37,376 bases of DNA from a virus: positions 1 to 37,376 of IMG/VR virus record IMGVR_UViG_3300028901_000135, one strand, 5' to 3'. Positions within the stretch are counted from its first letter, which is position 1; each line of letters starts with the position of its first letter. The translations under genes and the position numbers were made by a program. Under the pieces are notes generated by a model that ran no database searches, was not told the origin of the DNA, and saw only the letters and a program-made list of their open reading frames with translations. This document shows, in pieces, positions 142 through 37,376 of this stretch.

Positions 142-442
142 GACGATCGCGCGGACGGAGGCGGTGGGGGCGATGAACGGAGGAAAGTTGGAGGCGTGGA
201 AGCAGGCAGATCAGTTGTATGGTACGCGCACCAAAAAGACCTGGCTGGCTGAGCTGGACGATCGCACCAGGGAGAGCCACGTGGAGGCGCACCGGCGGTA
301 CCAGGCGGAGCCGATTGATAAGGACGAGGATTTCGAGGTGGGCGGAGTGTTTGGGCCTGGGCCGGGAGAGTTGGGCGATCCGGGTGAAGACATCAACTGC
401 CGGTGCACGATGCAACCAGTCGTGGAAGAAGAAGAGATTTAA
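2..442 (+). CDS. 3' part of the portal-MuF fusion gene (continues 35419..37376 across the junction); SPP1 gp7 / Mu F-like head-morphogenesis domain
   Basis: Same frame as the 35419 ORF once 37236 is mapped to position 1. The C-terminal DINCRCTM motif is typical of the gp7/MuF family. Stop TAA 440-442 lies inside a family-K repeat. Confidence 0.8.
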   Translation, partial: FAQEVNETTWNLLRESLAAGLEDGDGLQKLMERVESVMGERIQSSSETIARTEAVGAMNGGKLEAWKQADQLYGTRTKKTWLAELDDRTRESHVEAHRRYQAEPIDKDEDFEVGGVFGPGPGELGDPGEDINCRCTMQPVVEEEEI

Positions 443-470
443 CCACGAAACACACGAAAGACACGAAAGG
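435..470 (+). repeat. Family-K repeat, copy 1 (ATTTAACCACGAAA-CACACGAAA-GACACGAAAGG: three tandem CACGAAANN 9-mers)
   Basis: Its TAA (440-442) terminates the portal-MuF gene. 435-468 is identical to 19085-19118. It is followed by aagagaag and ATG 482. Confidence 0.9.
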
Positions 471-481
471 AAGAGAAGAAA

Positions 482-688
482 ATGCCTAGCACGACGATCA
501 AATGGTTTGAAAACGCACATTTGCCGGAACACTTGCGAAAGGTGAGCAAGCCGGTTTGCGATCTGGCGGTATTGATGGAGAAAATGCTACCGGATGGGCC
601 AGAGAAGAGCGCGGGAATGCGCAAGCTGCTGGAGGCGAAGGATTGCTTCGTGCGGGCGGAGCTGGAAGCGAAGCCCAAGGAGGTGTGA
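482..688 (+). CDS. Hypothetical protein, 68 aa
   Basis: ATG 482 follows a purine-rich tract just after family-K copy 1. Stop TGA 686-688 abuts GTG 690 of the protease gene. No motif recognised. Confidence 0.5.
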   Translation: MPSTTIKWFENAHLPEHLRKVSKPVCDLAVLMEKMLPDGPEKSAGMRKLLEAKDCFVRAELEAKPKEV

Positions 689-689
689 G

Positions 690-1682: not shown

Positions 1683-1683
1683 A

Positions 1684-3204: not shown

Positions 3205-3211
3205 CGAGATC

Positions 3212-3245
3212 GTGATCAGTGAGCAGTAATCGGTAAATGGTGAAG
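3212..3245 (+). repeat. Family-S stop-proximal short tandem motif (gtgatcagtgagcagtaatcggtaaatggtgaag)
   Basis: Begins 8 nt after the capsid stop and is rich in out-of-frame TGA/TAA. Confidence 0.8.
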
Positions 3246-3247
3246 AA

Positions 3248-3283
3248 CCTCACCCCTGCCCCTCTCCTACGAGGAGAGGGGTG
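3248..3283 (+). repeat. Family-H hairpin repeat (10-bp stem cccctctcct/aggagagggg)
   Basis: Intergenic, 44 nt after the capsid gene stop. Confidence 0.9.
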
Positions 3284-3306
3284 GGAGGAGAGGAAAGGAG
3301 CAAGCG

Positions 3307-3717
3307 ATGCAGATCGAGAATGACATTTCGAAGGGGCAGCTGGTGCCGTTGACGTTCGTGCAGGCGAACGCGGCCGCCAGCCAGACGGACGTGGCACTGA
3401 CAGTGGCCGAGGTTTCGGACGCCTACGCGATGCCGTTCGCCGGCGAGGTGGTGGCGGTGACGGTGCGCAGCAACGCGGCGCGGACAGCGGGCACCCTGAC
3501 GGCGGATGCGCTGATCAACGGGACGGCCGCTGGGCTGACGGCGGTGCTGAACGCGACGGTGACCAACAACAAGGTCAGCAAACAGCCGCGCGGGTCGGAC
3601 GAGTTCGCGGCCGGAGCATATATCGGGGCCAAGGTGACGACGGACGCGAGCTGGGCGCCGGAGACGGGCGATATCGTGGTCACGGTGTGGGTCTTGCTGA
3701 AAGTGGAAGGGATTTGA
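3307..3717 (+). CDS. Hypothetical virion-module protein, 136 aa (possible head auxiliary/decoration protein)
   Basis: Position directly after the capsid gene; SD ggaaaggag upstream; Ala/Thr/Val-rich beta-type sequence. Function is inferred from position only. Confidence 0.5.
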   Translation: MQIENDISKGQLVPLTFVQANAAASQTDVALTVAEVSDAYAMPFAGEVVAVTVRSNAARTAGTLTADALINGTAAGLTAVLNATVTNNKVSKQPRGSDEFAAGAYIGAKVTTDASWAPETGDIVVTVWVLLKVEGI

Positions 3718-3727
3718 GCCGAAGCGG

Positions 3728-3763
3728 CAGTAATCAGTGAGTAGTAATCAGTAATCAGTGAAG
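3728..3763 (+). repeat. Family-S motif (cagtaatcagtgagtagtaatcagtaatcagtgaag)
   Basis: Begins 11 nt after the stop of 3307..3717. Confidence 0.85.
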
Positions 3764-3798
3764 AGGGGAGGCGGTGAGCCTCCCCCAGGAGGATCGAA

Positions 3799-4095: not shown

Positions 4096-4096
4096 G

Positions 4097-7764: not shown

Positions 7765-7767
7765 GAA

Positions 7768-7816
7768 CCTACCCCTGCCCCTCCCTAAACACCCTGACGG
7801 GTGCAGGTGGAGGGGG
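7768..7816 (+). repeat. Family-H composite variant with an inner caccc-tgac-gggtg hairpin
   Basis: Intergenic, just upstream of the major tail gene SD. Confidence 0.9.
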
Positions 7817-7827
7817 AAAGGAGAATC

Positions 7828-8841
7828 ATGGCTGGAGTGGATGTTGGACGGAAGGTGCAGTTTGGCGGCGAGACGGTCGCGGGGACGGCGGTGGCGGCTA
7901 CGGCGTACTGGCGCGGGCTGGCGGGGATGCCGGACGACCGGCGCAAGGTGGTCTTCCCGGAGGAGGACATCGCCAGCGCGAGCGGGAAGGACCGCACGTA
8001 CACGCCGATGCTGGAAGCCGGGCTGGAGCTGCCGGAAACCGAGGCGACGTTCGAGCAGTTGCCCTACGTGTTCGAGAGCGGGATCAAGGCGGTGGGCACG
8101 GGCGTGGCGGACGGAGCGGGCGGCGGGCGGCTGTACACCTACGCGATGCCGATCGACGTGGCGACGCTGAACACGGTCAAGACGCGGACGATCGAGGCGG
8201 GCGACAACCAGAGCGTCGAGGAGATGGAGTATAGCTTCATCGAGAGCTTCAAGCTGACGGGCAAGCAGAACGAGGCGCTGAAGGTCTCGAGCGTGTGGGG
8301 CGGGCGGCAGTGGACGGTGAGTTCGTTCACCGCGGGGCTGAGCCTGCCGAGCGTGGAGACGATCCTGTTCTCGAAGGGCAAGCTGTACATCGACAACGAG
8401 GGCGGGACGATCGGCGGGACGCAGGTCAGCTCTAGCCTGCTGGGGATGGAATTGAGCTGCAAGACCGGATGGCGGCGGGTATACACGGGCGACGGGAACC
8501 TGTTCTTCGGGGCGATCGAGTTCGTGCGGGAGCAGATGGAGATCCTGCTCCAGCTCACCTTCCGGCACAACGCGAGCGCCGTATCAGAGAAGGCCGGCTG
8601 GCGGGCGGAGACGGCGCGGCAGGTGCGGCTGCAATGGGATGGCAGCGCGGTGACGGCGGGGACGAAATACAGCGCCAAGGCGCTGAGGATCGACCTGGCG
8701 GGCAAGTGGGAGAAGTTCGAGCGGATCGCCAGCGAGGGCGGGATCCACACGAGCACGGGTGTGCTGCGGGTGCGGCACAACGCGACGGCGAACCTGTTCG
8801 CGGTGTTCGAGGCGTGCAATAGTTTGGCGAGTTTGGCTTGA
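7828..8841 (+). CDS. Major tail protein (non-contractile tail tube)
   Basis: ATG 7828 follows ggaaaggag. It sits directly upstream of the G/GT chaperone pair and tape measure. A strong palindrome follows the stop. Confidence 0.7.
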   Translation: MAGVDVGRKVQFGGETVAGTAVAATAYWRGLAGMPDDRRKVVFPEEDIASASGKDRTYTPMLEAGLELPETEATFEQLPYVFESGIKAVGTGVADGAGGGRLYTYAMPIDVATLNTVKTRTIEAGDNQSVEEMEYSFIESFKLTGKQNEALKVSSVWGGRQWTVSSFTAGLSLPSVETILFSKGKLYIDNEGGTIGGTQVSSSLLGMELSCKTGWRRVYTGDGNLFFGAIEFVREQMEILLQLTFRHNASAVSEKAGWRAETARQVRLQWDGSAVTAGTKYSAKALRIDLAGKWEKFERIASEGGIHTSTGVLRVRHNATANLFAVFEACNSLASLA

Positions 8842-12607: not shown

Positions 12608-13471
12608 ATGGCAGCATCTTATCCGGCGGCGGTCAAGAGTTTTACGACGAAGGTCGACGGCGTGACCGATATTTTGGCGGAGCACATCAACAGCCCGCAA
12701 GAGGAGATCGTGGCGATCGAAACGGAGTTGGGGACCAACCCCAAGGGCACGGCGGCGAGCGTAGCTGCACTGCTCGCGGAGCTTACCACGTTTAGGACCA
12801 ACCTGCTGGCCGGCTGGATCTCACCGGGAGCAACGTGGACCTACGTCAGCGCGACACAATTCACGGAACCTGGAGACAAGACGGCGGTCTATAAAACCGG
12901 GACGAAGCTCAAGTGCACCAACAACGGCATCGTTAAATATTTTTCCGTTCTCAGCTCGTCCTACTCCGCGCCCAACACGGCGGTGACCATATCGGGCGGG
13001 AATGATTACTCGCTGGCCAACGCGGCGATCTCGAGCAATTTTTACTCGTATGCGGAGAACCCGCAGGGGTTCCCAGGATTTTTCAACTGGACGCCGACGT
13101 TTGTTTCGACGAGTGCCACCTTCGTCTACAATCTCCAATCGGGGACATTTTCCATTCGCGGGAGAGCGATCACGGTGCAAGGCTTCATCAACCTTACCGG
13201 GGCGCCTGGGGGTACCACCAGCAACGCACTGACGATCGCGCTGCCCTTCACGGCCGCCACCATCTCGGGATGGTCGATGTACTTCTCTAATTACTGGTCG
13301 ATCGTGACGTTGCCGGCCAATATGACGCAGCTGCTTTCGTATGTGAGTTCCGGTGGGGCGGCTGTCACGCTGCGATATACCGGGTCCGGGCAGACGGCGG
13401 GCAATCTACTGGCGAGCGCATTAGGCTCTAATGCCGTGATGGGTTTTGCCGGTCAGTACTGGCTTCCGTAG
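12608..13471 (+). CDS. Tail fibre protein, 287 aa
   Basis: N-terminal ...ILAEHINSPQEEIVAIETELGTNPKG... is a recurrent tail fibre motif. It is the last gene of the structural operon. Confidence 0.6.
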   Translation: MAASYPAAVKSFTTKVDGVTDILAEHINSPQEEIVAIETELGTNPKGTAASVAALLAELTTFRTNLLAGWISPGATWTYVSATQFTEPGDKTAVYKTGTKLKCTNNGIVKYFSVLSSSYSAPNTAVTISGGNDYSLANAAISSNFYSYAENPQGFPGFFNWTPTFVSTSATFVYNLQSGTFSIRGRAITVQGFINLTGAPGGTTSNALTIALPFTAATISGWSMYFSNYWSIVTLPANMTQLLSYVSSGGAAVTLRYTGSGQTAGNLLASALGSNAVMGFAGQYWLP

Positions 13472-15073
13472 GGGGAGGTAGATTTTATTGGTATGGTCGG
13501 AGACCCTCCCGGGGCACCTACCATACGCATAAAAACCCTCTTCGGTCGGCAGGAGCGAATAACACTCCACCAGGCCGAGGAGGGTTTTGTTTTCTACGTC
13601 CAGTTCGGCGGCGATGCGCTTGACCAGGCCCTGGAGGGCGGGTTTGATCTGGGCGGTGTCGCCGGAAGAGAGGGCCAGACGCAGGCGGGCGGCGCGACTT
13701 TTCATCTCCTCGAGGGCGGGCAGGGGGGCGGCCGGTTTATCGAGGGCGGCCAGGGTTGCAAGGTTGGCAGTCTCTTCGGCCTGGAGATCGTGCAGGCGGG
13801 TCATCATGGCGGGAGGTGCGCCGCGGCCAGCATCGGCCAGCAGGTCAAGGAGGTTGGAGATCTTCCGGCGCACGCCGCTGAGTTCGCGGGCGATCTTGTT
13901 GCGCCGTTTTTTGAGTGTGGCGGTCTCCTGTTCGCGCTCAAGGTGGAGGGCCAGCCAGCCGATGGATATGACCTCGTCGGTCAGGCCCTCGTCGATGACA
14001 GCATCGAGGACGGCGTTCTCGAGCTGGGCGCGTGGAATATTGCGGGCGTCGCAGCCGGTGTTGCGGGTGCGGCCGCTGCACGTGTAGTATTGGTAGCGGT
14101 AGCCGGAGGTGGTCTTGAACTGGACGGTTTCGGCGGTGAGCATGGCGCCGCAGCGGGCGCAGTGCACCAGGCCGGTGAGAAGGAATTCGCCGGTGCCGCG
14201 ACGAGGATGGTCGGGGCGGTCGGGTCCGGCGGCGACGCGGGCGCGCTGGGCATCCTGGACGAGCTGGACGGCGGTCCAGGTGGCGTTGTCGACAAGCGGG
14301 GTGCAGTAATCTTCGATGACCTGGTCGCCGAAGCGCAGGCGGCCGATGTAGATCTCGTTGCGAAAGAAGCGCTCGAAGCCTGGCGTGCTGCTGTAGAGGT
14401 GGGTGGCGGCGTTAATGGATTTGTAGGAAGCGCCGGCGGCGCGCATCTCGAACGCCTGGCGGACGAGGGGGACCATGGCCGGGTCGGGCTGCCAGCGGTG
14501 AACGACGTGGGGGCGGCCGTCGCGGTGGGCGCCGATGGTGAGAGGAACGCGGACGAAGCCGCGGGGCGGGGTGCCGCCGAGGGCGCCGTGCTGGTCCACG
14601 AGGTGGCGCAGACCGCGCTTGACATCGGCGCGGAGATCCTCGAGGAAGCGGGCGTTCATCCAGTCGATGGCGGCTTCGAAGAGGCGGCCGTCGAGACCCT
14701 CGGGGACGGAATCGTTGAGGGAATGGATGATCACGCCGCGGCGGCGCAGGTCGGCCTTGTAGAACTGGGCGTCATCGATGTCACGGGCGAAGCGGTTGTA
14801 CTTCCAGACGATGATGCCCTTCTCGGGGCAGTTGGGGGCGCGGAAGGCGCGGATCATCTCGAGGAAGGCTTCGCGGCCAACGGTGGAGGAGCCGGGGCGG
14901 GCGGCGTCGCGGTAGATGGCGGTGAGGAGGATGCCGGAGCGCTCGCACCAGGCGCGGATGGACTGTTCCTGCTGTTCGACGGAAAGCTCCTGGTCCTCGT
15001 GGCCGCTATCGCGGAGGTAGGCGGCGACGCGGGATCCGGAAGGGAATGGGCCGGAATTCCTATCCGTCATCAT
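13421..15073 (-). CDS. Large serine recombinase (integrase type)
   Basis: Resolvase-type N-terminus (VAAYLRDSGHEDQELSVEQQ, YRDAARPGSS, VWKYNRFARD), a recombinase domain, a Cys cluster (CARCG...YYTCSG...GC) and a coiled-coil tail. Start ATGATG at 15073 overlaps the stop of the upstream gene; the track's 15124 start is a less likely extension. Confidence 0.85.
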   Translation of the reverse strand: MMTDRNSGPFPSGSRVAAYLRDSGHEDQELSVEQQEQSIRAWCERSGILLTAIYRDAARPGSSTVGREAFLEMIRAFRAPNCPEKGIIVWKYNRFARDIDDAQFYKADLRRRGVIIHSLNDSVPEGLDGRLFEAAIDWMNARFLEDLRADVKRGLRHLVDQHGALGGTPPRGFVRVPLTIGAHRDGRPHVVHRWQPDPAMVPLVRQAFEMRAAGASYKSINAATHLYSSTPGFERFFRNEIYIGRLRFGDQVIEDYCTPLVDNATWTAVQLVQDAQRARVAAGPDRPDHPRRGTGEFLLTGLVHCARCGAMLTAETVQFKTTSGYRYQYYTCSGRTRNTGCDARNIPRAQLENAVLDAVIDEGLTDEVISIGWLALHLEREQETATLKKRRNKIARELSGVRRKISNLLDLLADAGRGAPPAMMTRLHDLQAEETANLATLAALDKPAAPLPALEEMKSRAARLRLALSSGDTAQIKPALQGLVKRIAAELDVENKTLLGLVECYSLLPTEEGFYAYGRCPGRVSDHTNKIYLPLRKPVLTGKTHHGIRA

Positions 15074-17681: not shown

Positions 17682-17714
17682 CCTAACCCCCGCCCTTCCC
17701 TAGAGGGAAGGGAG
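17682..17714 (+). repeat. Family-H hairpin repeat
   Basis: Intergenic, upstream of 17745. Confidence 0.9.
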
Positions 17715-17744
17715 CGGATCAAACCAAACAATAAGGAAAAAATA

Positions 17745-18096: not shown

Positions 18097-19092
18097 ATGG
18101 AAGCTAACAGCTATCAGCTAACAGCTATCAGCCAGAAACAGCGTGTAGAACGGCCCTGGGTGGAAAACTTCTTTGAGTTTCTGAGAGAAGAACGGGCTGA
18201 GAAGACTGTGGCGGCTTACGCGCAGGATTTGAAGCATTTTTGCGCGTGGTTCAAGCGGGCAAACGCGGAGGTCTTCGCGCCTGGACTTTTGAATACCAGG
18301 GATCTCCGGGATTATCGCACCTGGTGCCTGGAAGTGGAGCACGCGGCGCCGGCGACGTGGAACCGGCGGCGGGCGACGCTGCGCATCTTGTGTTCCTGGG
18401 TAGAGACGCACGAGGTAGAGACGCAAAATCTTGCGTCTCTACGGGTGGCCTGCGAGAAGGCGCTGAAACCTGCCGACGAGGTGGAACAGGCGCCGCGGTG
18501 GCTGGAGCCGTGGGAGGAGCGCAAGGTGCTGCGCCAGGTGGAGATCAACGTCAACGCGGCCAGGACCGTGCTCCAGCGAGAGCGGGCGCTGCGCGACGCG
18601 GCCATGGTCGCTCTGATGCGCTATGCGGGGCTGCGGGTGGACGAGGTGGCGAACCTCGAGGCGGGGGACGTGCAGATCTCGGAGCGCAAGGGGGAAGTGA
18701 CGGTGCGGCAGGGGAAGCGGGAGAAGACGCGGCGGGTGCCGTTGTCCAGTTCGGCGCGGGAGGCGATCTGTGCATGGATCGCTGTCCGCTGTCCGCTGTC
18801 CGCCGAGGCGCTGTTCTCGGACAAAAGCGGATCGCGGATCGCGGACCGCTCCATTCAGAAGCGTGTGGAGCTGCTGGCTGAGCAGACGGGGATCGATGAG
18901 CTGACCTGTCACGCGCTGCGGCACACGTGCGCGAAATCGATGGTCGATGCCGGGCGGCCGCTGACCGAAGTGCAGCGGATCCTGGGGCACGAGAAGCTGG
19001 AGACAACGGCGAGGTACGTGCAGCCGGGGCGGGAAGACCTGGCGGAGGCGGTCGAGGCGGGCGAACTTGGGAAGATGAGGAAGAAGATTTAA
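18097..19092 (+). CDS. Tyrosine recombinase (XerC/D-phage integrase family)
   Basis: SAM-like N-domain (TVAAYAQDLKHFCAWF) and a catalytic region with LRVDEV, HALRHTCAKSMV, LGHEKLETTARY. It carries in-frame repeats at 18103-18130, 18400-18442 and 18781-18801. Its stop is supplied by family-K copy 2. Confidence 0.85.
   Translation: MEANSYQLTAISQKQRVERPWVENFFEFLREERAEKTVAAYAQDLKHFCAWFKRANAEVFAPGLLNTRDLRDYRTWCLEVEHAAPATWNRRRATLRILCSWVETHEVETQNLASLRVACEKALKPADEVEQAPRWLEPWEERKVLRQVEINVNAARTVLQRERALRDAAMVALMRYAGLRVDEVANLEAGDVQISERKGEVTVRQGKREKTRRVPLSSSAREAICAWIAVRCPLSAEALFSDKSGSRIADRSIQKRVELLAEQTGIDELTCHALRHTCAKSMVDAGRPLTEVQRILGHEKLETTARYVQPGREDLAEAVEAGELGKMRKKI
18103..18130 (+). repeat. Tandem 14-mer x2 (gctaacagctatca)
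   Basis: Codons 3-11 of the annotated tyrosine recombinase (ANSYQLTAISQ). Confidence 0.9.
18400..18442. repeat. Family-V hairpin GTAGAGACGCAA-aatc-TTGCGTCTCTAC, preceded by a partial direct copy
   Basis: 12-bp stem at 18415-18442. In frame in the tyrosine recombinase (VETHEVETQNLASLRV). Confidence 0.9.
18781..18801 (+). repeat. Tandem 7-mer x3 (gctgtcc)
   Basis: In frame in the tyrosine recombinase (AVRCPLS). Confidence 0.9.
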
Positions 19093-19121
19093 CCACGAAA
19101 CACACGAAAGACACGAAAAGG
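19085..19121 (+). repeat. Family-K repeat, copy 2
   Basis: Its TAA (19090-19092) terminates the tyrosine recombinase. It is followed by aggagg and GTG 19129. Confidence 0.9.
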
Positions 19122-19128: not shown

Positions 19129-19320
19129 GTGGAAGAAAAAGGGAAAGAGAGGGCGGTGGTCCACGTGCGGGTGACGACGGACCGGGTGTTGGTGGAGAGC
19201 GTGGCGACGCGGATCAGCGAGATCCTGGAAGCGGAGGGCTACGAGATCATCGAGCAAACCGGGCTGCGGGCGGACCGCGAGGATCCGCTCAACGGCAAGG
19301 TATTTATCACGGCGAGATAG
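19129..19320 (+). CDS. Hypothetical protein, 63 aa
   Basis: GTG 19129 follows aggagg. Confidence 0.45.
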   Translation: MEEKGKERAVVHVRVTTDRVLVESVATRISEILEAEGYEIIEQTGLRADREDPLNGKVFITAR

Positions 19321-21307: not shown

Positions 21308-22129
21308 GCGAGGGCGTTGCGCTGCTGGGCGGTGCTTTGATCTGCTTGGCGATGGATCGGCATAGTTGACCTCAGTTGAGCTGGGCGGCGGGAAGGCGTT
21401 GTAGGGCTGACCAATGAGGTGAAGCGATGGAACAGTCCCGTTCTGCGGCGGCATGGAGTGGTCAAGCAAGGCAGTGTGAAGGCAAAGTCGGGCCATGAGT
21501 GGCAAGGAAGTGTGACGGCAAAGTCGGGCCATGAGTGGCAAGGAAGTGTGACGGCTGGGCATCGTTTGGCACCCAAGGGAAACGCAGGGGAAGGGCGGAG
21601 CAGTTGGCTGCGGAGCAAGGGCAGGGATCGGTGATGAAAAGTATCGCATCGCGATGGCAAGGAGTTGTAGCGTGACACCAGGCAATGTTTGGCAAGGGCA
21701 TAGCAGAGCAGGGAACGATGTGCATGGGCTGGGCCACGAAAAGCCTTGCGCTGCCCGGCGAGGGTTGCGCATAGCACCGCTGTGACAAGCGAGAGCGTGG
21801 AGCTGCGGCGCGGGGCGTGGTTGCGGATAGCAATGGCAAGGAGAAGCTGTGAGATGTAGTGCGAAGGCTGTGAATGGATCGGAGTTGTGTTGTCGCGAGG
21901 GGCGAGGGCAAAGCAATGTGTTGCGCAGTCAAGTCTTGTAGAGGCTAAGTTTGTCTAAGCTATGTCTTGTGTCGGCCTTGAACAGCAGCGCGCTGAAGGG
22001 ATCCGTGAAGGTTAGGCAGTGCTAGGAAATGTCCGGCAACTGATTAGCGCAGTTAGGTTCGTTTGGCGAAGGCTATGGATAGCCTTGTTCAGAAAAGCAA
22101 AGGCAAAGTGCGGATTGAAGGGACATGCA
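21308..22129 (+). other. ~0.82-kb region with no credible ORF; repeat-containing, candidate non-coding RNA or protein-binding array
   Basis: All three + frames are dense with stops. The - strand ORFs are Pro/Ser/Cys/His-rich shadows. TGGCAAGGA recurs five times. Confidence 0.55.
21481..21552 (+). repeat. Two perfect tandem copies of a 36-nt unit (ggcaaagtcgggccatgagtggcaaggaagtgtgac), plus a degenerate partial copy at 21463-21480
   Basis: Read directly. Related 36-nt-spaced TGGCAAGG units occur at 21654 and 21690. Confidence 0.9.
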
Positions 22130-26282: not shown

Positions 26283-26415
26283 GTGGCCGTGGTACGTGTG
26301 GGCGGGGATTGGGGCGCTGCTGGCCGGGATCGGTTGGTTGTTTTGGGAGGCGGCGCATCCGAGCACGTTCGATGAGGATGTGTACCTGCGCAAGCAGCGA
26401 GAGGGGAAGAGATGA
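26275..26415 (+). CDS. Possible 46-aa single-TM protein (MFEWPWYVWAGIGALLAGIGWLFWEAA...)
   Basis: Overlaps the upstream stop, and its own stop overlaps the next ATG (ATGA at 26412). Below the track's size cutoff. Confidence 0.4.
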   Translation: MFEWPWYVWAGIGALLAGIGWLFWEAAHPSTFDEDVYLRKQREGKR

Positions 26416-26933
26416 GCAAGGCAGCGGGATGCAGCGGGTTGCTGGGGCTGGCGGGGATGGCTGTGGCGGGTGTCGCGCTGGTGTCGATGACCAGGGGCGA
26501 GGGGTTGGATACCTGGCCGATGCTGTGCGGGGGAGGGCTGGCGGGGCTTTTGTTTGGGAGTATTGCCATCGGAATGATGGCGCCAAAGGGGAGAAAGAAT
26601 TTTAACCACGAAACACACGAAACACACGAAAGGGGAGAAAGAAAAGAAGAATTTGTAGATACGCGGCAGACCCATGAGCGGGTGGTGCTGTCGAGGGGGT
26701 ACACCTGGCAGGAGGGCGGGAAAATTATGTCGGACAGGAGCCGGGAGTACCTGATTTATGAGGGGTACGCGATCGGGGTGCCGGGAGTGGATTATCCGGG
26801 CGAAGCGCCGGTGCTGCTGCCCGAGGCGGATGGGTGCTATCACCTGCCGGGAGTGGTGCTACACGGGGTGGAGCTGGGTGGGGCTATCCTGGCGCCGGAG
26901 TTTTTCAACCAATGGAGGGATGGAGATGCCTGA
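26412..26933 (+). CDS. Hypothetical protein, 173 aa: a 2-TM N-terminal part and a soluble C-terminal part joined through a family-K repeat
   Basis: The continuous ORF reads ...APKGRKNFNHETHETHERGERKEE.... An internal SD (caggaggg) plus ATG 26727 could also start the second part independently. Confidence 0.5.
   Translation: MSKAAGCSGLLGLAGMAVAGVALVSMTRGEGLDTWPMLCGGGLAGLLFGSIAIGMMAPKGRKNFNHETHETHERGERKEEFVDTRQTHERVVLSRGYTWQEGGKIMSDRSREYLIYEGYAIGVPGVDYPGEAPVLLPEADGCYHLPGVVLHGVELGGAILAPEFFNQWRDGDA
26599..26633 (+). repeat. Family-K repeat, copy 3
   Basis: Read through in frame as NFNHETHETHERG inside 26412..26933. Confidence 0.9.
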
Positions 26934-27204
26934 GATCGTGGTGATGATGACGCAAGATGAGTACCGGGAGCTCTTCGAGAAGGAGCGGCACCTGGCGTAT
27001 GAGTGCCTGGAGAGCGGGGAGGCTGAGCTGGTCAAGATCGGCCAGGTGATGCTGGGGAGGCGGTGGGCGGTGGATGACGAGGAGAACGCGCGGATCGAGG
27101 CGGAGATGGAGAGGATGTGGGCGTGGTTGAGAAGAGATCTTAACCACGAAATACACGAAACACACGAAATTGAGGAAAAGCAAAAGGAAGAGAAGGGAAA
27201 TTGA
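26920..27204 (+). CDS. Hypothetical protein, ~94 aa, C-terminal tail encoded by family-K copy 4
   Basis: ATG 26920 or 26926 follows ggaggga; overlaps the upstream stop. Confidence 0.5.
   Translation: MEMPEIVVMMTQDEYRELFEKERHLAYECLESGEAELVKIGQVMLGRRWAVDDEENARIEAEMERMWAWLRRDLNHEIHETHEIEEKQKEEKGN
27136..27169 (+). repeat. Family-K repeat, copy 4
   Basis: Read as DLNHEIHETHEI near the C-terminus of 26920..27204. It is followed by a purine-rich tract and ATG 27206. Confidence 0.9.
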
Positions 27205-27205: not shown

Positions 27206-27457
27206 ATGTGTCCGTGCGGTGATTTGGCCGGTCTGGATTTGAGCATGTTGGTGCGGCCAGAGGTGCGGCCGTTGTTTTGGACGGTGGTGGCGATGGTCTG
27301 GATGACCGTGCTGTTTGCGATGGCCAAGACGGGCAAGCGCCAGGCGATTAGAAAGCATAGGGAGCCAGGCGTGGCGGATATCGTGCAGGCGATCGCGGAG
27401 GATAACGCGAAGCTGCGGAAAGAGCTGGAACGGAACAAGCCGCGGTGGAGGTTTTGA
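27206..27457 (+). CDS. Small membrane protein, 83 aa
   Basis: ATG 27206; one TM helix (RPLFWTVVAMVWMTVLFAMA). Confidence 0.5.
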   Translation: MCPCGDLAGLDLSMLVRPEVRPLFWTVVAMVWMTVLFAMAKTGKRQAIRKHREPGVADIVQAIAEDNAKLRKELERNKPRWRF

Positions 27458-28095: not shown

Positions 28096-28133
28096 AGATT
28101 ATTAACCACTAAACACACGAAATACACGAAAGG
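28096..28133 (+). repeat. Family-K repeat, copy 5 (variant aaccacTaaa)
   Basis: Intergenic; followed by ggaagagaggagg and ATG 28149. Confidence 0.9.
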
Positions 28134-28148: not shown

Positions 28149-29162
28149 ATGGGCAAGAAGACGGGGATCAGCTGGTGCGACCACACGTTTAATCCGTGGT
28201 GGGGGTGCGTGAGGGTTAGCGCGGGGTGCGAGCGGTGTTATGCGGAGACGTTCGCGAGGCGGTTGGGGTTCGATGTGTGGGGGGAGAATCGTCCGCGACG
28301 GTTTTTTGGTGAGAAGCATTGGAACGAGCCGTTGCATTGGAACCGGCAGGCGGAGATGGAAGGAGTTCGAAGGCGGGTTTTTTGTGCTTCGATGGCGGAC
28401 GTGTTCGAAAATCCTCCCCTGGCGTTTTTGTTGAATGAGCGGTACAGGCTTTGGGAACTCGTCGAAAAGACGCCACAATTGGATTGGCTGGTGCTGACGA
28501 AGCGGCCGGAGAATATCAAGCCGTTCGTGCCGGAGAAATGGCTGAACTATGGCGGACCGGATCACGTGTTTATGGGGACGACGATCGAGCACCAGAACGT
28601 GGCGAAGAAGCGGCTGACTGATTTGTTCCGGTGGCCGGGGAGGAATTTTGTCAGCGTGGAGCCGATGCTGTCGCCGGTGAGCCTGGCGGAGGCGATCGAG
28701 CCGGAGGATGAGGATTGGGAGGCGGTGAACGCGATCAACGACGACCCAGAACCGGAGGAGTTCGAGGAAGAGTGCGAGGTGGAGTGCGACTGGGTCAATT
28801 ATGGGCATGACCTGGTGCCGAACCCGGAGCATTACGAGTGGGCGAGCTGGCGGCGATGGCGGGCGGGTTTGTTCGCGCTGGGGCGGCTGGTGGATTGGGT
28901 AATCATCGGGGGGGAGAGCGGGGCCGGTTGCAGGCCGATGGAGACCCGGTGGGTAGAGGCGCTGATGGATGAGTGCCTGATTGCGAAGGTGCCGGTGTTT
29001 GTGAAGCAGTTGGGGGGGCATCCGGATAAGCGAGACAGGATGGAGGAGTGGCCGGTGGCGTTGAGGAAGCAGGAGTTTCCGAGGAGCGGCGAGGATCTGA
29101 CCAGGTGGCTGATGTATGGGGATGAAGAGGGCGGGTCTACGGGTCAACATAGTCGCGGGTAG
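28149..29162 (+). CDS. Phage Gp37/Gp68 family (DUF5131)-like protein with an acidic insertion
   Basis: The N-terminal GISWCDHTFNPWWGCVRVSAGCERCYAE signature matches my recollection of DUF5131. ATG follows gaggagg. Confidence 0.75.
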   Translation: MGKKTGISWCDHTFNPWWGCVRVSAGCERCYAETFARRLGFDVWGENRPRRFFGEKHWNEPLHWNRQAEMEGVRRRVFCASMADVFENPPLAFLLNERYRLWELVEKTPQLDWLVLTKRPENIKPFVPEKWLNYGGPDHVFMGTTIEHQNVAKKRLTDLFRWPGRNFVSVEPMLSPVSLAEAIEPEDEDWEAVNAINDDPEPEEFEEECEVECDWVNYGHDLVPNPEHYEWASWRRWRAGLFALGRLVDWVIIGGESGAGCRPMETRWVEALMDECLIAKVPVFVKQLGGHPDKRDRMEEWPVALRKQEFPRSGEDLTRWLMYGDEEGGSTGQHSRG

Positions 29163-29184
29163 ATGCAGGAGACCCGCCCGAACC
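29130..29184 (+). repeat. Family-G element (~55 nt; GGCGGGTCT ... AGACCCGCC stem, then CGAACC)
   Basis: Spans the DUF5131 stop codon. Homologous to 31501-31556, including an identical 20-mer gcaggagacccgcccgaacc. Confidence 0.85.
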
Positions 29185-29207
29185 ACAATACCCGCCCGAA
29201 CCACAAT
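29172..29207 (+). repeat. Tandem 18-mer x2 (acccgcccgaaccacaat)
   Basis: Intergenic, between the DUF5131 gene and 29224. Confidence 0.9.
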
Positions 29208-29223
29208 ACAGGAGGTTAGAAGG

Positions 29224-29733
29224 ATGTTAGAGAACAAAACGCAGGCTAAGCCAGTACTTATGACCTATGCGGCCAAAATGGGGCTGGAAGAGGTTATTAC
29301 CATGTTAGGCCATGATCCACGGCTGGTGGGGGTGGCGGAGCTGGAGGACGTGGCGCGGCGGTTGTGCGATGCGGCGGAGCACAATGGGCTGGAGCGGCCG
29401 AGCTGGGGCTGGCGCTATTTGCGGAATGTGCTGAACGGGAAGCTGGAGGCGAGCAAGCGGTTGACGGATGCGATCCTGCGTTTGGGGGCGCTGTTGGATG
29501 GGGCACCGGCTGAGGCGATCGCGGGGGAGCGGGTGACGATCCTTGCGCTGGGGCGTGTGGCGGCGGGGGCGGTGGTCTTGGCTGATTCGCGGCCGTGCGG
29601 GAACCCGGGGTGCAGGGTGGAGTTTGTGCCGCGGGTGCCGTGGCAGAGGTTTCATTCGCGGGAGTGCGGAAAGATCGTAAGAAATTTAAACCACGAAATA
29701 CACGAAAAACACGAAAGGGGAAAGAAGAGGTGA
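29224..29733 (+). CDS. Hypothetical protein, 169 aa, with a C-terminal Cys cluster (CGNPGCRVEF...FHSRECG) and a family-K-encoded tail
   Basis: ATG 29224 follows caggagg. The track's upstream extension runs through tandem repeats. Confidence 0.55.
   Translation: MLENKTQAKPVLMTYAAKMGLEEVITMLGHDPRLVGVAELEDVARRLCDAAEHNGLERPSWGWRYLRNVLNGKLEASKRLTDAILRLGALLDGAPAEAIAGERVTILALGRVAAGAVVLADSRPCGNPGCRVEFVPRVPWQRFHSRECGKIVRNLNHEIHEKHERGKKR
29681..29718 (+). repeat. Family-K repeat, copy 6
   Basis: Read as NLNHEIHEKHERG at the C-terminus of 29224..29733. Confidence 0.9.
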
Positions 29734-29826
29734 AAAAAAAGTGGCGGTTTATTCGGGCGCAGTATGCGACGAGCTGGTGGCAGGCGGTGCTGATCTGGTT
29801 GATGGAGAGAGGAGGCGGTTTTTACC

Positions 29827-29856
29827 GCAGATGAACGCAGATGAACGCAGATGAAA
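29827..29856 (+). repeat. Tandem 10-mer x3 (cgcagatgaa)
   Basis: Provides ATGs at 29831, 29841 and 29851; only 29841 is in frame with the ASCH-like ORF. Confidence 0.9.
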
Positions 29857-30500
29857 AGAAGGGCAAGGAAAGGCCGATTTTGTTTTCGGGTGAGATGGTG
29901 CGGGCGATTTTGGAGGGGCGGAAGACGCAGACGCGGCGGGTGATCAAGCCGCAGCCGCATGCGATCATCAAGGATTGGCCCTACGTGGATGATCCACATG
30001 AGGTTGTCGACGAGCAAAAAGGGCGAATCAAGAAGGTTTTTTCGGACGATAACATGAACCGGTTTGTACGGCCGCTCAAGTGCCCGTATGGACAGCCTGG
30101 CGACCGGCTGTGGGTCAGGGAGACGTTTATGGTAAAGGATGGGAAATCGGGAAAACCATGCCTGTTTTACAAGGCAAATGGCCCCGCCGATTTTTACCCC
30201 GGTGAATTGGCGTATTTTGCGGCAACGTGGCAGCCGTCCATCCACATGCCACGGGGATATTCCCGCATCAACCTGAAGATTACCGGCGTGCGGGTGGAGA
30301 GGGTGCAGGGGATCAGCTATGCGGATGCACTGGCGGAGGGGGTTTGGCGGCCGGGGCCTGACGCGGATCCAGACCAGGTTGACCGAGAGTATGATGCGAT
30401 CGATCAGTATATCCGCGTGTGGAATGAGATCAACACGAAGCGCGGGTATGGGTGGGAGAGCAATCCCTATGTGTGGGTTATTGAGTTAAAGAGGATATAG
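29841..30500 (+). CDS. ASCH/PUA-like domain protein, 219 aa
   Basis: ILFSGEMVRAILEGRKTQTRRV...YGQPGDRLWVRETF resembles phage ASCH-domain proteins. The start lies in a 10-nt tandem repeat that offers ATGs in all frames. Confidence 0.6.
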   Translation: MNADEKKGKERPILFSGEMVRAILEGRKTQTRRVIKPQPHAIIKDWPYVDDPHEVVDEQKGRIKKVFSDDNMNRFVRPLKCPYGQPGDRLWVRETFMVKDGKSGKPCLFYKANGPADFYPGELAYFAATWQPSIHMPRGYSRINLKITGVRVERVQGISYADALAEGVWRPGPDADPDQVDREYDAIDQYIRVWNEINTKRGYGWESNPYVWVIELKRI

Positions 30501-32048: not shown

Positions 32049-32054
32049 AAGGAG

Positions 32055-32085: not shown

Positions 32086-32263
32086 GGAAAACTCTAATGT
32101 AATGTTCTAGTTATATAGAACTTTGGGGACTTTTAATTTTTTGAGCATCGATGTATACTAAATTTTGAAGTTAGCACGTACTAATAACATGCGGCCCCCG
32201 GTGGGTGGGGCATTGGTTCGGAGATGAGCGCCCGGCGAGTGATCGTTGGGCGTTTTTGATTCA

Positions 32264-32295
32264 CCTAACCCTGCCCTTCCCTATAGGGAAGGGTG
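32264..32295 (+). repeat. Family-H hairpin repeat
   Basis: Intergenic, upstream of the holin-like gene. Confidence 0.9.
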
Positions 32296-32316
32296 GGAAA
32301 AGAAAGGGAGGGTTCC

Positions 32317-33796: not shown

Positions 33797-35325
33797 TGCC
33801 AGCAAGGATTACACCGGATGCGGCGCTGGCGGAGCGGGCACGGCGAGAGCTGGCGCGGCGCGGGCTGATCGCGTTTTCGGAGTACGTGGCGCCATGGTAC
33901 CGGACGGGGCGGCATCACCGGCTGGTGGCGGAGAAGCTGGAGCTGGTGCTGCGGTATATCGAGACGAAGGGCAAGGAGGGGATCGGGCGGCTGATCATCT
34001 CGGAGCCGCCGCGGCATGGGAAGACGGAGCAGGTGAGCCGGTTGTTCCCGGCGTATCTGCTGGGACGGCTGCCCGATTCGCGGGTGATCGTGACCTCATA
34101 CGGCGCCGACCTGGCGCAGGACGATTCCAGGGCGGTGCGGCAGTACGTGACGAGCGACCGGTACAGCGCGCTGTTTGGGCAGCAGAGCGCGGTGGACGAC
34201 GCGGTGGAGCTGGCCTATGACGCGAGGGCGCGTGCGAACTGGAACCTGGCGGAGCCGCACCGGGGCGGGGTGGTGGCGGCTGGCGTGGGCGGCGGTATCA
34301 CGGGTAAAGGCGCGCACCTGCTGATCGTGGACGACCCTTTCAAGAACCGGGACGAGGCGGAGAGCGAGGCCTACCGCAAGCGGGTGGTGAGCTGGTGGAC
34401 GAGCTCAGCGTATACCCGCCTGGAAGAGGGGGCGGCGATCGTGATCACGCATACGCGGTGGAACCGGGACGACCTGGCGGGGTATCTGTTGCAGCAGATG
34501 GTGCAGGACCCACTGCTGGCGGACCAGTACGAGGTGCTTTACCTGCCCGCGCTGGCGCTGGAGGAGGACGAGTACTGCCGGGACGAGGCGGATTTTCTGA
34601 AAAATCTGGAGCGGGGGCTGTTCGTTCCGGCTGCCGATCCGCTGGGGAGGGCGCCAGGCGAGGCGCTGTGGCCGGAGAAGTATACGCGGGAGGCGCTGGC
34701 GCGAATCCGGGCGAACGTGCTGGATTTTGAGTTTACCTGTTTGTACCAGCAGCTGCCCAGACCTCAAACGGGTGGATTTTTCGATGAGGCAGACCTGGTG
34801 GTAGTAGATCGCGCGCCGGAGGGGTTGCGTTGGTTCCGGTATGTGGACCTGGCGCTGGGTAAAACGAAAACGGCAGACTGGAACACAACGGTGGCCACCG
34901 CGCTGGACCAGGCGACGGGTGACGTTTATTTCCGGGATCTGCTGCATGTGCACGAGCTGGGCGATTTCGAGGACCAGGTCGTGGAGCTGATCAAGGCCGA
35001 TTCGGAGATGGGGACGATCTGGGGGTTCGAGGATGTGAGCTTCCAGGAGCTGTTTATGCTGGACCTGCTGAAGAAGCCGGAGCTGGCGAACAAGAACATC
35101 GTGCCGGTGGCACCGATCGGGGATAAGGTGAGTCGTGCGCGGCCTCTGCAACTGAGGGCGAAGCAGGGGAAGGTGAAGTTGGTGAGAGGGCCGTGGAACC
35201 GGACGTTCATCAATGAGTGCCTGGGTTTCCCGGCGGGGAAGCACGACGATATCGTGGACACGGCGAGCATGGGTTTGCAGATGGTGGCGAGCCCGATTGT
35301 GATCGGTGAGGATGCAGTCGTGTGA
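33796..35325 (+). CDS. Terminase large subunit
   Basis: Walker A ISEPPRHGKTE, Walker B HLLIVDDPFKN, and a C-terminal nuclease-type region. The order terminase-portal-protease-capsid is the classical one. Confidence 0.9.
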   Translation: MPARITPDAALAERARRELARRGLIAFSEYVAPWYRTGRHHRLVAEKLELVLRYIETKGKEGIGRLIISEPPRHGKTEQVSRLFPAYLLGRLPDSRVIVTSYGADLAQDDSRAVRQYVTSDRYSALFGQQSAVDDAVELAYDARARANWNLAEPHRGGVVAAGVGGGITGKGAHLLIVDDPFKNRDEAESEAYRKRVVSWWTSSAYTRLEEGAAIVITHTRWNRDDLAGYLLQQMVQDPLLADQYEVLYLPALALEEDEYCRDEADFLKNLERGLFVPAADPLGRAPGEALWPEKYTREALARIRANVLDFEFTCLYQQLPRPQTGGFFDEADLVVVDRAPEGLRWFRYVDLALGKTKTADWNTTVATALDQATGDVYFRDLLHVHELGDFEDQVVELIKADSEMGTIWGFEDVSFQELFMLDLLKKPELANKNIVPVAPIGDKVSRARPLQLRAKQGKVKLVRGPWNRTFINECLGFPAGKHDDIVDTASMGLQMVASPIVIGEDAVV

Positions 35326-35404
35326 ACAGTGAACAGTGAGCGGTGAGCAGTAATGAGTAACCCCCACCCGGGGTGAGGGTAACTGGAAACTGGTAACTGG
35401 TGAG
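35322..35404 (+). repeat. Family-S motif block (gtgaacagtgaacagtgagcggtgagcagtaatgagtaac ... ggtaactggaaactggtaactggtgag)
   Basis: Begins at the TerL stop codon and fills the TerL-portal spacer. Confidence 0.85.
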
Positions 35405-35418
35405 AGCAAAGAGGCAGC

Positions 35419-37376
35419 ATGGGTATAGCTGATACATTCGGAAAACTTGCGGGGCGGTTTGAGGCGGCGCGGCGGGCGTTCGTGCTGGGGCCGGGGGTGG
35501 TGGACCCATACGAGACGGCGATGGGGCACGACACCTCGAAATTCACGGACGAGGCGTATGGGGATTACATCGTTACCTCGAGCGCGGTGTATTCGTGCGT
35601 GACGCTGAAAGCCAACCTGTTTAAAGGGTTGAACTTCAAGCCGTATAAGCTGGGGGCGGATGGGACGAAGGTGGAGGTGACGAAGGGGAACCTGGTCAAT
35701 CTTTTACGTAAGTTCAATCCGTTCTGGTCGATGCGGCGCGCGCTGGAGATGTATTCCAAGTCGATGGGGTTATGGGGGAAAAACTTCTGGTTCTGCGAGC
35801 GGGGTGAGAGCGGAAAGATGCCGCCGCGGGAAATCTGGTGGGGGAGGCCGGACCGGGTGAAGATCGTGCCGGATGAGGTGAATTACATCAAGAAATTTCT
35901 GTACTACCCGGTGAATTCTACGGTGCCGCTGGTGTTCGACCCGTGGGAGGTGATCTGGTTCCGCTATGGAAACCCACTGGACGAGTACGAGGGGCTGGCG
36001 CCGGTGGCGGCGGCGCGGATCGCGGCAGACCTGCGCAGCTCCGCGTTTCAGAGCAACAAGAAGTTGTTCGACCAGGGGATGCAACTGGGCGGGGCGATTA
36101 CGCCGCCGAAGGGAAGCACGCTGGAGAAGGAGCAGGCGCGGGAGATCGAGGAGATGGTCAATAAGCGCTTTACCGGGGTGGAGAGGGCGCACCGGTGGGC
36201 GGTGTTCCGCTACGAGTTCGATATGAAGCAGCAGGGGATCAACGCGCGAGACGCGGAGTTCTTGGGGACGCTCAATCTGACGCTGGAGGAGGTGGCGAGG
36301 GTTTACGGTATCCCGCTAGACCTGGTTGGAGGGGAGCGGACCTATGAGAACGTGGAGGCGAGCGAGCGGGCGATCTGGACGCGGACATTGAAACCGGAGG
36401 CGGAGGATTTCGCGGCCGAGCTGACCGAGCAGCTGCTGCCGATGTTCCCGGGCGAGGCGGACATCATCGAGCCGGATCTGAGCGAGGTGGAGGTTCTGCA
36501 CGAGAGCGAGACGGCGGCCTGGGAGCGAGACAAGGGGAAGATCGAGACGGGGGCGAAGAAGATCAACGAGTGGCGGAAGGAGCAGGGATTAGAGCCGGTG
36601 CCGTGGGGGGATGTGTGGTGGGCGCAGGGGACGCTGAGGCCGGTGAAGGAGGCGGAGGAGGAATTCACCGCAGAGGACCCAGAGAACACTGAGGGAGAAG
36701 AGGAAAATTTAACCACGAAAAACACGAAAGGCACGAAAGGGGAAGAAGAGGAAAACGCGGACGAGGAAGATAACGCGGACGAGGAAGGAACCTCTCCCCC
36801 ACCCTCCCCTAAAGGGAAGGGAGCGGAGGAAGAGGCGGCTAGGGATACCCGCCCTACGCGGACCAGAGCATGGGTGGGAATGAAGTTTGGGAGCGAGGAG
36901 CATGCGCGGGCGTGGCGGGCGTTCGAGCGTAAGGCGGTGAAGTGGGAACGGCGGACGCGGGAGATGGTGGTGGACTTGTTCCGACGTCAGAAGGAGAGCG
37001 TGTTGGCGCGGATGGGCGACCAGCGGGCCGCGCGGACGGCGGATGAGGCGGCGAAGGAACCGTTCAACCGGAAGGAATGGATTCGTAAATTTCGCATCGA
37101 GATGCGGGCTTTATTGGAGGATTTATTGGAGGAGGTAGGGGAAGATGCGTTCGACGAGATCCCCGGAGGTAATGGTGGCACGTTCGATGTGAAGGCGCCG
37201 GCAGTAAGGCGGTTTATGGAGCGGCGGGCGCAGCGGTTTGCCCAGGAGGTGAATGAGACTACCTGGAACCTGCTGCGGGAGAGCCTGGCGGCCGGGTTGG
37301 AAGACGGAGACGGTTTGCAGAAGCTGATGGAGCGGGTTGAAAGCGTAATGGGGGAGCGGATCCAAAGTTCGAGCGA
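35419..37376 (+). CDS. Portal protein (HK97 family) fused in frame to a MuF/gp7-like domain; runs off the window and continues at 2..442 (752 aa in total)
   Basis: Not in the ORF track because there is no stop in the window. ATG 35419. Portal-type sequence (SAVYSCVTLKANL..., GLAPVAAARIAADL, EEVARVYGIPLDLVGG). A repeat-built linker at ~36700-36860 leads into the MuF-like region. Confidence 0.85.
   Translation, partial: MGIADTFGKLAGRFEAARRAFVLGPGVVDPYETAMGHDTSKFTDEAYGDYIVTSSAVYSCVTLKANLFKGLNFKPYKLGADGTKVEVTKGNLVNLLRKFNPFWSMRRALEMYSKSMGLWGKNFWFCERGESGKMPPREIWWGRPDRVKIVPDEVNYIKKFLYYPVNSTVPLVFDPWEVIWFRYGNPLDEYEGLAPVAAARIAADLRSSAFQSNKKLFDQGMQLGGAITPPKGSTLEKEQAREIEEMVNKRFTGVERAHRWAVFRYEFDMKQQGINARDAEFLGTLNLTLEEVARVYGIPLDLVGGERTYENVEASERAIWTRTLKPEAEDFAAELTEQLLPMFPGEADIIEPDLSEVEVLHESETAAWERDKGKIETGAKKINEWRKEQGLEPVPWGDVWWAQGTLRPVKEAEEEFTAEDPENTEGEEENLTTKNTKGTKGEEEENADEEDNADEEGTSPPPSPKGKGAEEEAARDTRPTRTRAWVGMKFGSEEHARAWRAFERKAVKWERRTREMVVDLFRRQKESVLARMGDQRAARTADEAAKEPFNRKEWIRKFRIEMRALLEDLLEEVGEDAFDEIPGGNGGTFDVKAPAVRRFMERRAQRFAQEVNETTWNLLRESLAAGLEDGDGLQKLMERVESVMGERIQSSS
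36703..36740 (+). repeat. Family-K repeat, copy 7
   Basis: Read in a different frame (ENLTTKNTKGTKG) in the portal-MuF linker. Confidence 0.9.
36791..36822 (+). repeat. Family-H hairpin repeat
   Basis: In frame in the portal-MuF linker (GTSPPPSPKGKGA). Confidence 0.9.
37236..37376. repeat. Second copy of the 141-bp terminal redundancy
   Basis: Identical to 1-141. Confidence 0.95.

Follow-up and report, generated by a model that had tools for sequence, protein, structure and literature searches.

A triple nine-base repeat in a phage genome and its possible place in a superfamily of interspersed bacterial elements

We analysed a 37,376-nt window of DNA, the whole of IMG/VR virus record IMGVR_UViG_3300028901_000135, in which a short element occurs seven times, always in the same orientation. 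It consists of a TTTAAC-like head followed by three tandem nine-base units (CACGAAAnn), and the same unit recurs in many bacteria and in unrelated phages. The interpretation that we prefer, and to which we give about as much belief as doubt, is that the element belongs to a superfamily of interspersed elements resembling miniature inverted-repeat transposable elements (MITEs) or repetitive extragenic palindromic (REP) sequences, that solo arms of it have colonised tolerant positions in the phage genome, and that its uses there as a stop codon or as a protein tail are incidental. The copies would have settled between genes, in C-terminal tails and in a disordered linker, all of them places that can take some 30-50 additional bases without damage. 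The TAA stop, the hydrophilic tails, the bridge within an open reading frame (ORF) and the A-rich spacer ahead of a Shine-Dalgarno (SD) sequence would then be by-products of the landing place and frame of each copy.

Seven copies in the phage genome

The last 141 bases of the window (37236-37376) are an exact copy of the first 141 (1-141), so that the contig closes into a circle of 37,235 bp. The portal-MuF ORF (about 35419 to 442) crosses the junction of this circle, and ORF 14..442 is its end. When up to three mismatches were allowed, CACGAAAnnCACGAAAnnCACGAAA was found at 444, 19094, 26607, 27145, 28107, 29692 and 36714, all on the plus strand, with none expected from 100 shuffles, which bears out an earlier note on this DNA as to the number of copies and their common orientation. 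Only the copy at 28107 was recorded with a mismatch (CACTAAA). Genome-wide, all 21 CACGAAA heptamers are on the plus strand and 20 of them fall within the seven elements. On its 5' side each copy has (A)TTTAAC or a close variant, itself preceded by a run of purines, and on its 3' side a purine-rich run. The copies are as follows.

438 to 468, plus strand: copy 1, head TTTAAC and three CACGAAAnn units; the TAA at 440-442 is the portal-MuF stop codon, and the next ATG is at 482
19088 to 19118, plus strand: copy 2; the TAA at 19090-19092 is the stop codon of the tyrosine recombinase gene, followed by AGGAGG and the start codon at 19129
26601 to 26631, plus strand: copy 3, within ORF 26412..26933, read through in frame as NFNHETHETHE
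27139 to 27169, plus strand: copy 4, head CTTAAC; C-terminal tail (...DLNHEIHETHEIEEK...) of ORF 26926..27204, next ATG at 27206
28101 to 28131, plus strand: copy 5, head ATTAAC and first heptad CACTAAA; intergenic, 17 nt before the start of the DUF5131 gene at 28149
29685 to 29716, plus strand: copy 6, head TTTAAAC; C-terminal tail (...NLNHEIHEKHERGKKR) of ORF 29224..29733
36708 to 36738, plus strand: copy 7, translated as NLTTKNTKGTKG within the disordered portal-MuF linker

Relative to the element, the three reading frames are used differently, and the earlier note had read them correctly. In the first, the TAA of the head is the stop codon of ORF 14..442 and of the tyrosine recombinase gene 18097..19092, i.e. 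in two of the seven copies; these two are identical over 34 nt, as had also been noted, and sit at unrelated junctions. The second frame is read through as NHE(T/I)HE(T/K)HE in 26412..26933, 26926..27204 and 29224..29733, ORFs that are backed by their codon-usage score, including both sides of copy 3, and with which independent gene calls concur. The third is read as LTTKNTKGTKG in the portal-MuF linker. Start codons had been assigned downstream of five copies, and four of them hold, with good coding scores, at 482 (13 nt from the element), 19129 (10 nt), 27206 (36 nt) and 28149 (17 nt). The fifth, the GTG at 29730, has a coding score of about zero and is doubtful, the next solid gene start being at 29841. 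Four of the seven copies lie within ORFs, and two of these, copies 3 and 7, are not followed by a start codon.

The absence of dyad symmetry claimed for the single element was confirmed. Its local folds were no better than those of shuffled sequences apart from what neighbours contributed, and the folds that did better came from unrelated neighbouring hairpins or from a short CGTGG(TT)/(AA)CCACG pairing with upstream sequence. At copy 7, the head and the preceding A-run form A_AAT_TTA in the portal frame (36705-36711), a sequence shaped like a slippery heptamer for -1 frameshifting. As pure speculation, a -1 shift at this place would lead into NHEKHERHE... and a stop after about 20 codons, and a +1 shift would meet TAA at once, so that either would yield a portal-only protein.

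Conserved unit and distribution

From 158 bacterial and 65 viral copies we aligned a unit consisting of a K-rich run (T or G), AAC, C and (CACGAAAnR)x3. Within the 9-mers the heptad positions are near maximal information, the eighth carries almost none and the ninth is mostly A. The window copies depart from this pattern at only about 2 of some 175 constrained positions, and their 14 free positions are scrambled. Because the CAC and GAA codons show zero synonymous variation and only the eighth base is free, the constraint acts on nucleotides and not on protein, in agreement with the earlier view that no cause at the protein level explains the conservation. Since three near-invariant heptads stand beside a freely varying eighth base, we infer that a sequence-specific factor, perhaps a trimer or a three-domain protein, reads the three tandem units; such a reader would most likely be host-encoded, and might be the enzyme that mobilises the element.

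The conserved part comprises the head and the three heptads only. Elsewhere the head is often GGAACC or TGAACC, and here it supplies a stop codon in just two copies, so TAA is not intrinsic to the element. The purine-rich SD is the one commonly used in this genome, and relatives have it without the element. The proposal of a dedicated cassette of stop codon, three 9-mers and SD is therefore not supported, and what is left of the portable intercistronic element described earlier is that it is portable and, in phages, lies in sense orientation between stop and start.

For bacteria, one genome per species was scanned (596 Gb) and 8-kb loci around the matches were retrieved; the gene calls in these loci are approximate, having been made with a crude, strand-symmetric ORF caller. 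The exact 28-mer was found in at least 120 bacterial loci with GC contents from 35 to 69%, against a chance expectation of about 0.004 matches in 596 Gb. Among 80 listed records out of these loci, about 22 were from Verrucomicrobiota, 13 from Planctomycetota, 6 from Acidobacteriota and 4 from Spirochaetota, the others being from Kiritimatiellae or Lentisphaeria (4), Bacteroidota (5) and Proteobacteria or Desulfobacterota (9), with singles elsewhere. Viral matches came from 85 IMG/VR loci, about 50 of them with the AAC-C head (GC 41-69%), and the phages carrying the element have no protein family in common with the window beyond a few distant matches. Conversely, 79 of 80 TerL relatives of the window lack the element and the remaining one has only a partial two-heptad match. 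The element is not specific to this phage or to its lineage.

There was no real match in GenBank phages (50,697 records) or in PLSDB plasmids (72,556). Rfam gave no match at gathering score for the window or for 20 bacterial loci, only generic hairpins far below threshold, and full-text literature searches by sequence (CACGAAA, TTTCGTG and the sister motifs described below) returned nothing relevant. The element is apparently undescribed, and the earlier note, too, knew of no function described for it. In loci L002 and L074 (IMGVR_UViG_3300044477_000284), GAACCG(C/A)AACCGAT precedes every copy of the CACGAAA unit (A-type), a pairing that suggests composite elements varying from genome to genome.

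Form in bacteria

More than one copy is present in over half of the 8-kb loci from bacteria. Most bacterial copies form terminal inverted repeats, in 62 adjacent convergent pairs (element, spacer, reverse element) with spacers of mostly 7-130 bp and usually one pair per 8 kb; the seven window copies are without a partner arm. The two arms of a pair differ at the free positions, which makes them independent versions and not exact palindromes. In four loci (L089, L150, L197 and L201, two of them in the same metagenome-assembled genome, or MAG) such arms enclose a unit of about 200 bp whose copies share more than 90% identity between unrelated flanks, and this is MITE-like behaviour. In bacteria, then, the element occurs mainly as inverted pairs, at least some of which would move as MITE-like units. 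Other arrangements include a tandem array of 12 exact copies (14 with near matches) at a period of 37-39 bp in L143, mosaics with sister types in L087, L108 and L161, one pair just after a 5S rRNA gene, and single genes sometimes bracketed by arms with their heads inward (L153, L186 and L107). Genes for GxxExxY-type PD-(D/E)XK nucleases were seen near A-type arms in 6-7 loci (e.g. L153, L145, L144 and L203), and the one at 2898-3456 of L153 is bracketed by such arms. As a partner of the element this nuclease was rejected, its arrangement being inconsistent and its frequency about that expected by chance in genomes rich in such genes.

Sister types and syntenic relatives

The A-type element is one of a superfamily whose sister types share the head, (T)TTAAC-C, and have three copies of another unit of 9-10 nt, namely CACGAAT(nnn), CGCGAAT, CGCAGAT(nnn), CGCTAAT, CACGGAA or CACGGAT. 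Such sister elements were seen in bacteria, beside A-type copies, and in the phage's closest relatives, where they lie between genes. Among viral loci the CACGAAT type was found in 42 and the CGCAGAT type in 24, mostly with the AAC-C head, with many copies per contig and both as solos and as pairs. One sister element lies in the window itself.

29819 to 29855, plus strand: sister element of the CGCAGAT type, head TTTTTAC and three units (CGCAGATGAA); the second unit contains the ATG of gene 29841..30500

Two relatives with the same gene order and base composition as the window were compared, L287 (6.7 kb; portal-MuF identity 74%) and L286 (21 kb out of a 37-kb contig; 69%), and neither has an A-type copy in the sequence examined. 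What stands at the corresponding junctions, or at neighbouring ones, is a sister element (CCACGAATGGACACGAATGGGCACGAATGG; TTTTCCGCGAATGGTCGCGAATGAACACGAAT; GTTAACCGCAGATATCGCAGATTTGCGCAGAT) or some other short repeat. The junction between portal and next gene has GTGAGCAG repeats, which in L287 are also found in the portal linker, so that a different repeat occupies both of the places held here by copies 1 and 7. The junction from TerL to portal has triple repeats of CACGAAT or CGCGAAT, and the L286 orthologue of 29224..29733 ends with two copies of GTCAGC at the place of copy 6. In more distant relatives the same genes abut without a spacer. Because relatives have other repeats, or no spacer, at these sites, the comparison indicates that short repeats turn over rapidly at permissive sites and that there is no conserved requirement for the element.

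Signs of insertion

For the seven copies, the left and right flanks of the same copy match each other better than cross-paired flanks do (permutation p = 0.011). A perfect 12-nt direct repeat, GGGGAGAAAGAA, stands on either side of copy 3; the element and one repeat make 44 nt, the removal of which would put the halves of 26412..26933 in different frames. This arithmetic is consistent with the earlier suspicion that the ORF may be a fusion; its protein has no homologue but itself. Copy 7 is flanked by a direct repeat matching at 15 of 17 nt (G[A/G]GG[G/A]AGAAGAGGAAAA), and here element and repeat make 48 nt, so that the frame is kept. Such repeats are only suggestive as insertion signs, since the flanks are purine-rich and of low complexity and since flanking repeats are not general in other genomes.

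The portal-MuF gene can be judged from its homologues. Both domains are present in all 120 listed homologues, the linker between them is hypervariable, and the TTKNTKGTKG segment is found only in this phage. A fusion made by the element was therefore rejected in favour of an ancestral one.

Orientation and placement

Paired elements provide a control, being symmetric with respect to flanking genes at 20:21 in bacteria and 6:6 in viral contigs. Among solos, those of viruses are in the sense orientation to co-directional neighbours by 19:4 and those of bacteria are antisense by 21:5 (two-sided binomial p about 0.003 each, with copies within a contig not being independent). A further 13 bacterial solos lie "inside" ORFs on the opposite strand, at least some of these being N-terminal over-extensions such as the one before guaB in L092. 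The head of phage copies usually falls 0-13 nt past the upstream stop codon, and in bacteria it often precedes the start codon of an ordinary housekeeping gene by 7-28 nt. For the phage copies, both placement and orientation clearly depart from randomness.

In dense phage genomes translation would be the simplest filter behind the bias. Read in the sense direction the element gives NHEKHE..., TTKNTK... and PRKTRK..., and in reverse FRVFRVFRG, FVSFVCFVV and SCLSCVSW. The bias toward sense in gene-dense phages would best be explained by selection, the sense peptides being hydrophilic and of low complexity with at most one frame giving a stop.

Interpretation and alternatives

The earlier note had set against its own idea that of a neutral, host-derived passenger of the MITE or REP kind, placed at random relative to gene ends. 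The distribution found in other genomes comes near to that picture, but the placement and orientation of phage copies depart from it. Several observations weigh against the interpretation that we prefer, in which mobile solo arms settled at tolerant positions. No consistent target-site duplication was found at bacterial pairs or at viral solos other than those of the window, and clustering of flanking ORFs and of all ORFs in about 180 loci revealed no generally conserved gene. Likewise, no transposase lay between distant arms or near the elements (about 200 loci). One locus is orthologous in three related genomes and changes solely in the number of 9-mers (2-4). Solo arms are, to our knowledge, not what a classical MITE leaves behind. 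Selfish repeats are normally lineage-specific, and the identity of the heptads across phyla is unusual for them; both this identity and the locus kept in three genomes would also fit a function that benefits the host. Phage copies are often only 0-30 nt from the next start codon, sometimes without an intervening SD, and this placement near stop and start could reflect a real role in translation. Finally, the sister elements at the same junctions in relatives could mean that these junctions need an element of this kind.

A broader proposal, which we put forward as tentative, takes the superfamily to be the sites of a sequence-reading machinery, a mobilising enzyme or a regulator with several specificities, in Verrucomicrobiota, Planctomycetota, Acidobacteriota and Spirochaetota and their phages, with the phages using or tolerating the sites as oriented punctuation between cistrons.

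A cis-regulatory site is a possible but somewhat doubtful alternative. Here a trimeric or three-domain protein, or the translation machinery, would act on the three heptads in mRNA or DNA to control the downstream gene. They might do so through a standby site or translational enhancer that is A/C-rich and unstructured, through coupling of the cistrons, or through a block to elongation of the stoperator kind. The sense orientation of phage solos (19:4) and their position, usually within 13 nt of the upstream stop, would be expected of such a site, and in some loci the element stands directly before the SD or even the ATG itself (L020, L079, L036 and L033). The bacterial solos 7-28 nt ahead of housekeeping genes, the strongly conserved heptads with their free eighth base and the sister elements at the same junctions in relatives are in keeping with it as well. 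Oriented intergenic motifs also have phage precedents in the start-associated sequences (SAS) and extended SAS (ESAS) of mycobacteriophages (PMC3203893) and in stoperators (PMC9283540). However, bacterial solos are oriented opposite to those of phages, and a single reader at the RNA level cannot serve both. Bacterial copies, moreover, are mostly inverted pairs, which would be base-paired and not unstructured, and several unit types coexist in one genome. In this phage four of the seven copies lie within ORFs, and no start follows copies 3 and 7; distant relatives run the same genes without a spacer, and no candidate binding protein is common to the carrier phages.

It is unlikely that the elements are recombination sites, with the pairs resembling attC or XerC/D sites and the phage solos being half-sites left by, or used in, recombination by a tyrosine recombinase that shuffles gene modules. 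The consensus boxes of attC, RYYYAAC ... GTTRRRY, close an imperfect hairpin of 57-141 bp. The head and its reverse complement (TTTTAAC...GTTAAAA) fit the boxes, and the bacterial pairs are indeed imperfect hairpins, of 60-190 bp with a variable loop. The single genes bracketed by inward-headed arms, the position of copy 2 abutting the XerC/D-like recombinase gene and the fast turnover of junctions between relatives can be counted on the same side. Yet the window recombinase scores 54 bits against an integron-integrase cut-off of 265, and was rejected as an integron integrase on that ground; bacterial loci usually have one pair per 8 kb and no cassette arrays, and no recombinase gene is consistently nearby. 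Sites of the attC kind are known neither as triple direct repeats nor as conserved across phyla, and solo arms cannot fold as attC does. Replication slippage in the purine-rich, low-complexity DNA of junctions, involving neither mobility nor function, is scarcely credible: although many other tandem repeats of 7-10 nt lie at junctions in this phage and its relatives, and orthologous bacterial copies have 2, 3 or 4 of the 9-mers, slippage is excluded by the cross-genome distribution because it cannot make the same 28-mer with an AAC-C head in at least 120 bacterial loci and in unrelated phages (0.004 expected), and it leaves the invariant heptads beside a free eighth base unexplained.

Further candidates were rejected individually. 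A structured RNA, tRNA or riboswitch found no Rfam or ARAGORN match, and the folds are no better than those of shuffles. No sigma-70 promoter was found on either strand when the region from 26 to 30 kb was scanned, and by eye the spacings do not fit the consensus sequences of extracytoplasmic-function (ECF), sigma-54 or extended -10 promoters; a -10-like TAAAWT is limited to the reverse strand of copies with a T-run in the head, about half of them all. A binding protein encoded by the phages was set aside, as no protein is common to the carrier phages. The A-type unit is C-rich and G-poor as a Rho utilisation (rut) site would be, but the sister types are not. Of Mu-type end sites, Spo0A boxes, parS, DnaA boxes, LexA boxes, rrn boxA and dif arms, each of which shares a few bases with the element, we know of none that matches the whole unit.

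Other repeats and genes in the window

The phage carries further short repeats. Tandem repeats with a 7-nt period lie after or flanking major genes at 3205-3245, 3728-3759, 18102-18132, 35322-35351 and 35378-35401, their units being GTGAnCA / GTAATCG, CAGTAAT, AGCTAAC, GTGAACA and GGTAACT. Each unit includes TGA or TAA, and the 7-nt period shifts the frame from one unit to the next, with the result that three units stop all three frames. Relatives have similar repeats of the 7-nt type (GTGAGCAG, CTGTGAnC). A hairpin, CCTCACCCCTGCCCCTCTCC...GGAGAGGGG, follows several genes (about 3249-3290, 7765-7830, 17690-17730 and 32270-32300) and looks like a second family of interspersed elements. It also occurs at 36795-36830 in the portal-MuF linker, where it is read in frame as TSPPPSPKGKG and where relatives have the hairpin at the same place. 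A 36-nt tandem repeat of 2.5 copies (21466-21555) lies in a non-coding stretch of 822 nt (21308-22129) that may be an origin or control region, and an 18-nt repeat, ACCCGCCCGAACCACAAT, is present in 2.1 copies at 29172-29209, between the DUF5131 gene and the next gene.

Two recombinases are encoded. A large serine recombinase (13421-15070, minus strand), with weak matches to the CcrB and XisF families, is overlapped by a spurious plus-strand ORF of 578 aa. The other is the XerC/D-like tyrosine recombinase at 18097-19092 (plus strand).

Significance

That a 28-nt motif should be identical across phyla and in unrelated phages, with sister families of the same architecture, points to a reader factor in lineages that have hardly any genetics, and this factor could be a regulator or the enzyme that mobilises the element. 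In practice, the elements create spurious or extended ORFs (NHEKHEKHE..., FRVFRVFRG...), fuse neighbouring genes, donate stop and start codons and break assemblies, and the annotation of MAGs and metagenomic phages would benefit if they were recognised. As markers, they could also link phages to host lineages.

Comparison with known systems

Like the Correia elements of Neisseria and the Rickettsia palindromic elements (RPE), which are MITEs that insert into genes or beside them, the element is short, non-autonomous and present in many copies. It resembles MITEs also in that its bacterial arms stand as terminal inverted repeats, that one unit occurs at unrelated loci and that parts of it can be co-opted as signals, and it resembles RPE in that insertions in frame within ORFs are tolerated and translated (here copies 3, 4, 6 and 7). 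It differs from MITEs in having an arm made of three direct 9-mers, conserved across phyla and accompanied by sister unit types, in the solo state of its phage copies, and in that no cognate transposase (about 200 loci) and no consistent target-site duplication were found.

REP sequences, bacterial interspersed mosaic elements (BIMEs) and REP doublets forming hairpins (REPINs) are mobilised by REP-associated tyrosine transposases (RAYTs), which are IS200-like Y1 enzymes. The element shares with them an extragenic location, frequent inverted doublets capable of forming hairpins alongside singlets, and mosaics of types side by side (L087, L108 and L161). The REP arm, however, is an imperfect palindrome of 20-40 bp with a GTAG or CGTC tag, whereas the arm described here is without dyad symmetry and has an AAC-C head; in addition, no RAYT-like gene was seen in the 8-kb loci and the element is not lineage-specific. 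Mycobacterial interspersed repetitive units (MIRU) are direct repeats of 46-101 bp confined to mycobacteria. They are similarly intercistronic and oriented with the operon, and can supply or overlap the flanking stop and start codons, but the present element is about 31 bp long, spans phyla and is paired in bacteria.

Closer to phages are the SAS and ESAS of Cluster K mycobacteriophages, conserved motifs of one orientation and unknown function upstream of a subset of genes, the SAS being a single motif by the start codon that is kept with particular gene families in one phage cluster (PMC3203893). The single orientation is shared, as is the occasional company of inverted repeats with a variable spacer (PMC3203893). 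In contrast to the SAS, the element adjoins stop codons, occurs within ORFs, is shared with bacteria and does not follow gene families; in syntenic relatives the corresponding genes are without it, and its distances to start codons range from 10 to 36 nt. The stoperators of Cluster A phages are single asymmetric sites bound by the phage's own immunity repressor, with which they co-vary (PMC9283540). No cognate phage protein was found for the element, the window proteins being without homologues in other carrier phages, and the element differs in having three tandem units and the same sequence in unrelated phages and bacteria. What it has in common with stoperators is its asymmetry, its many positions in the genome and its one orientation relative to transcription (PMC9283540).

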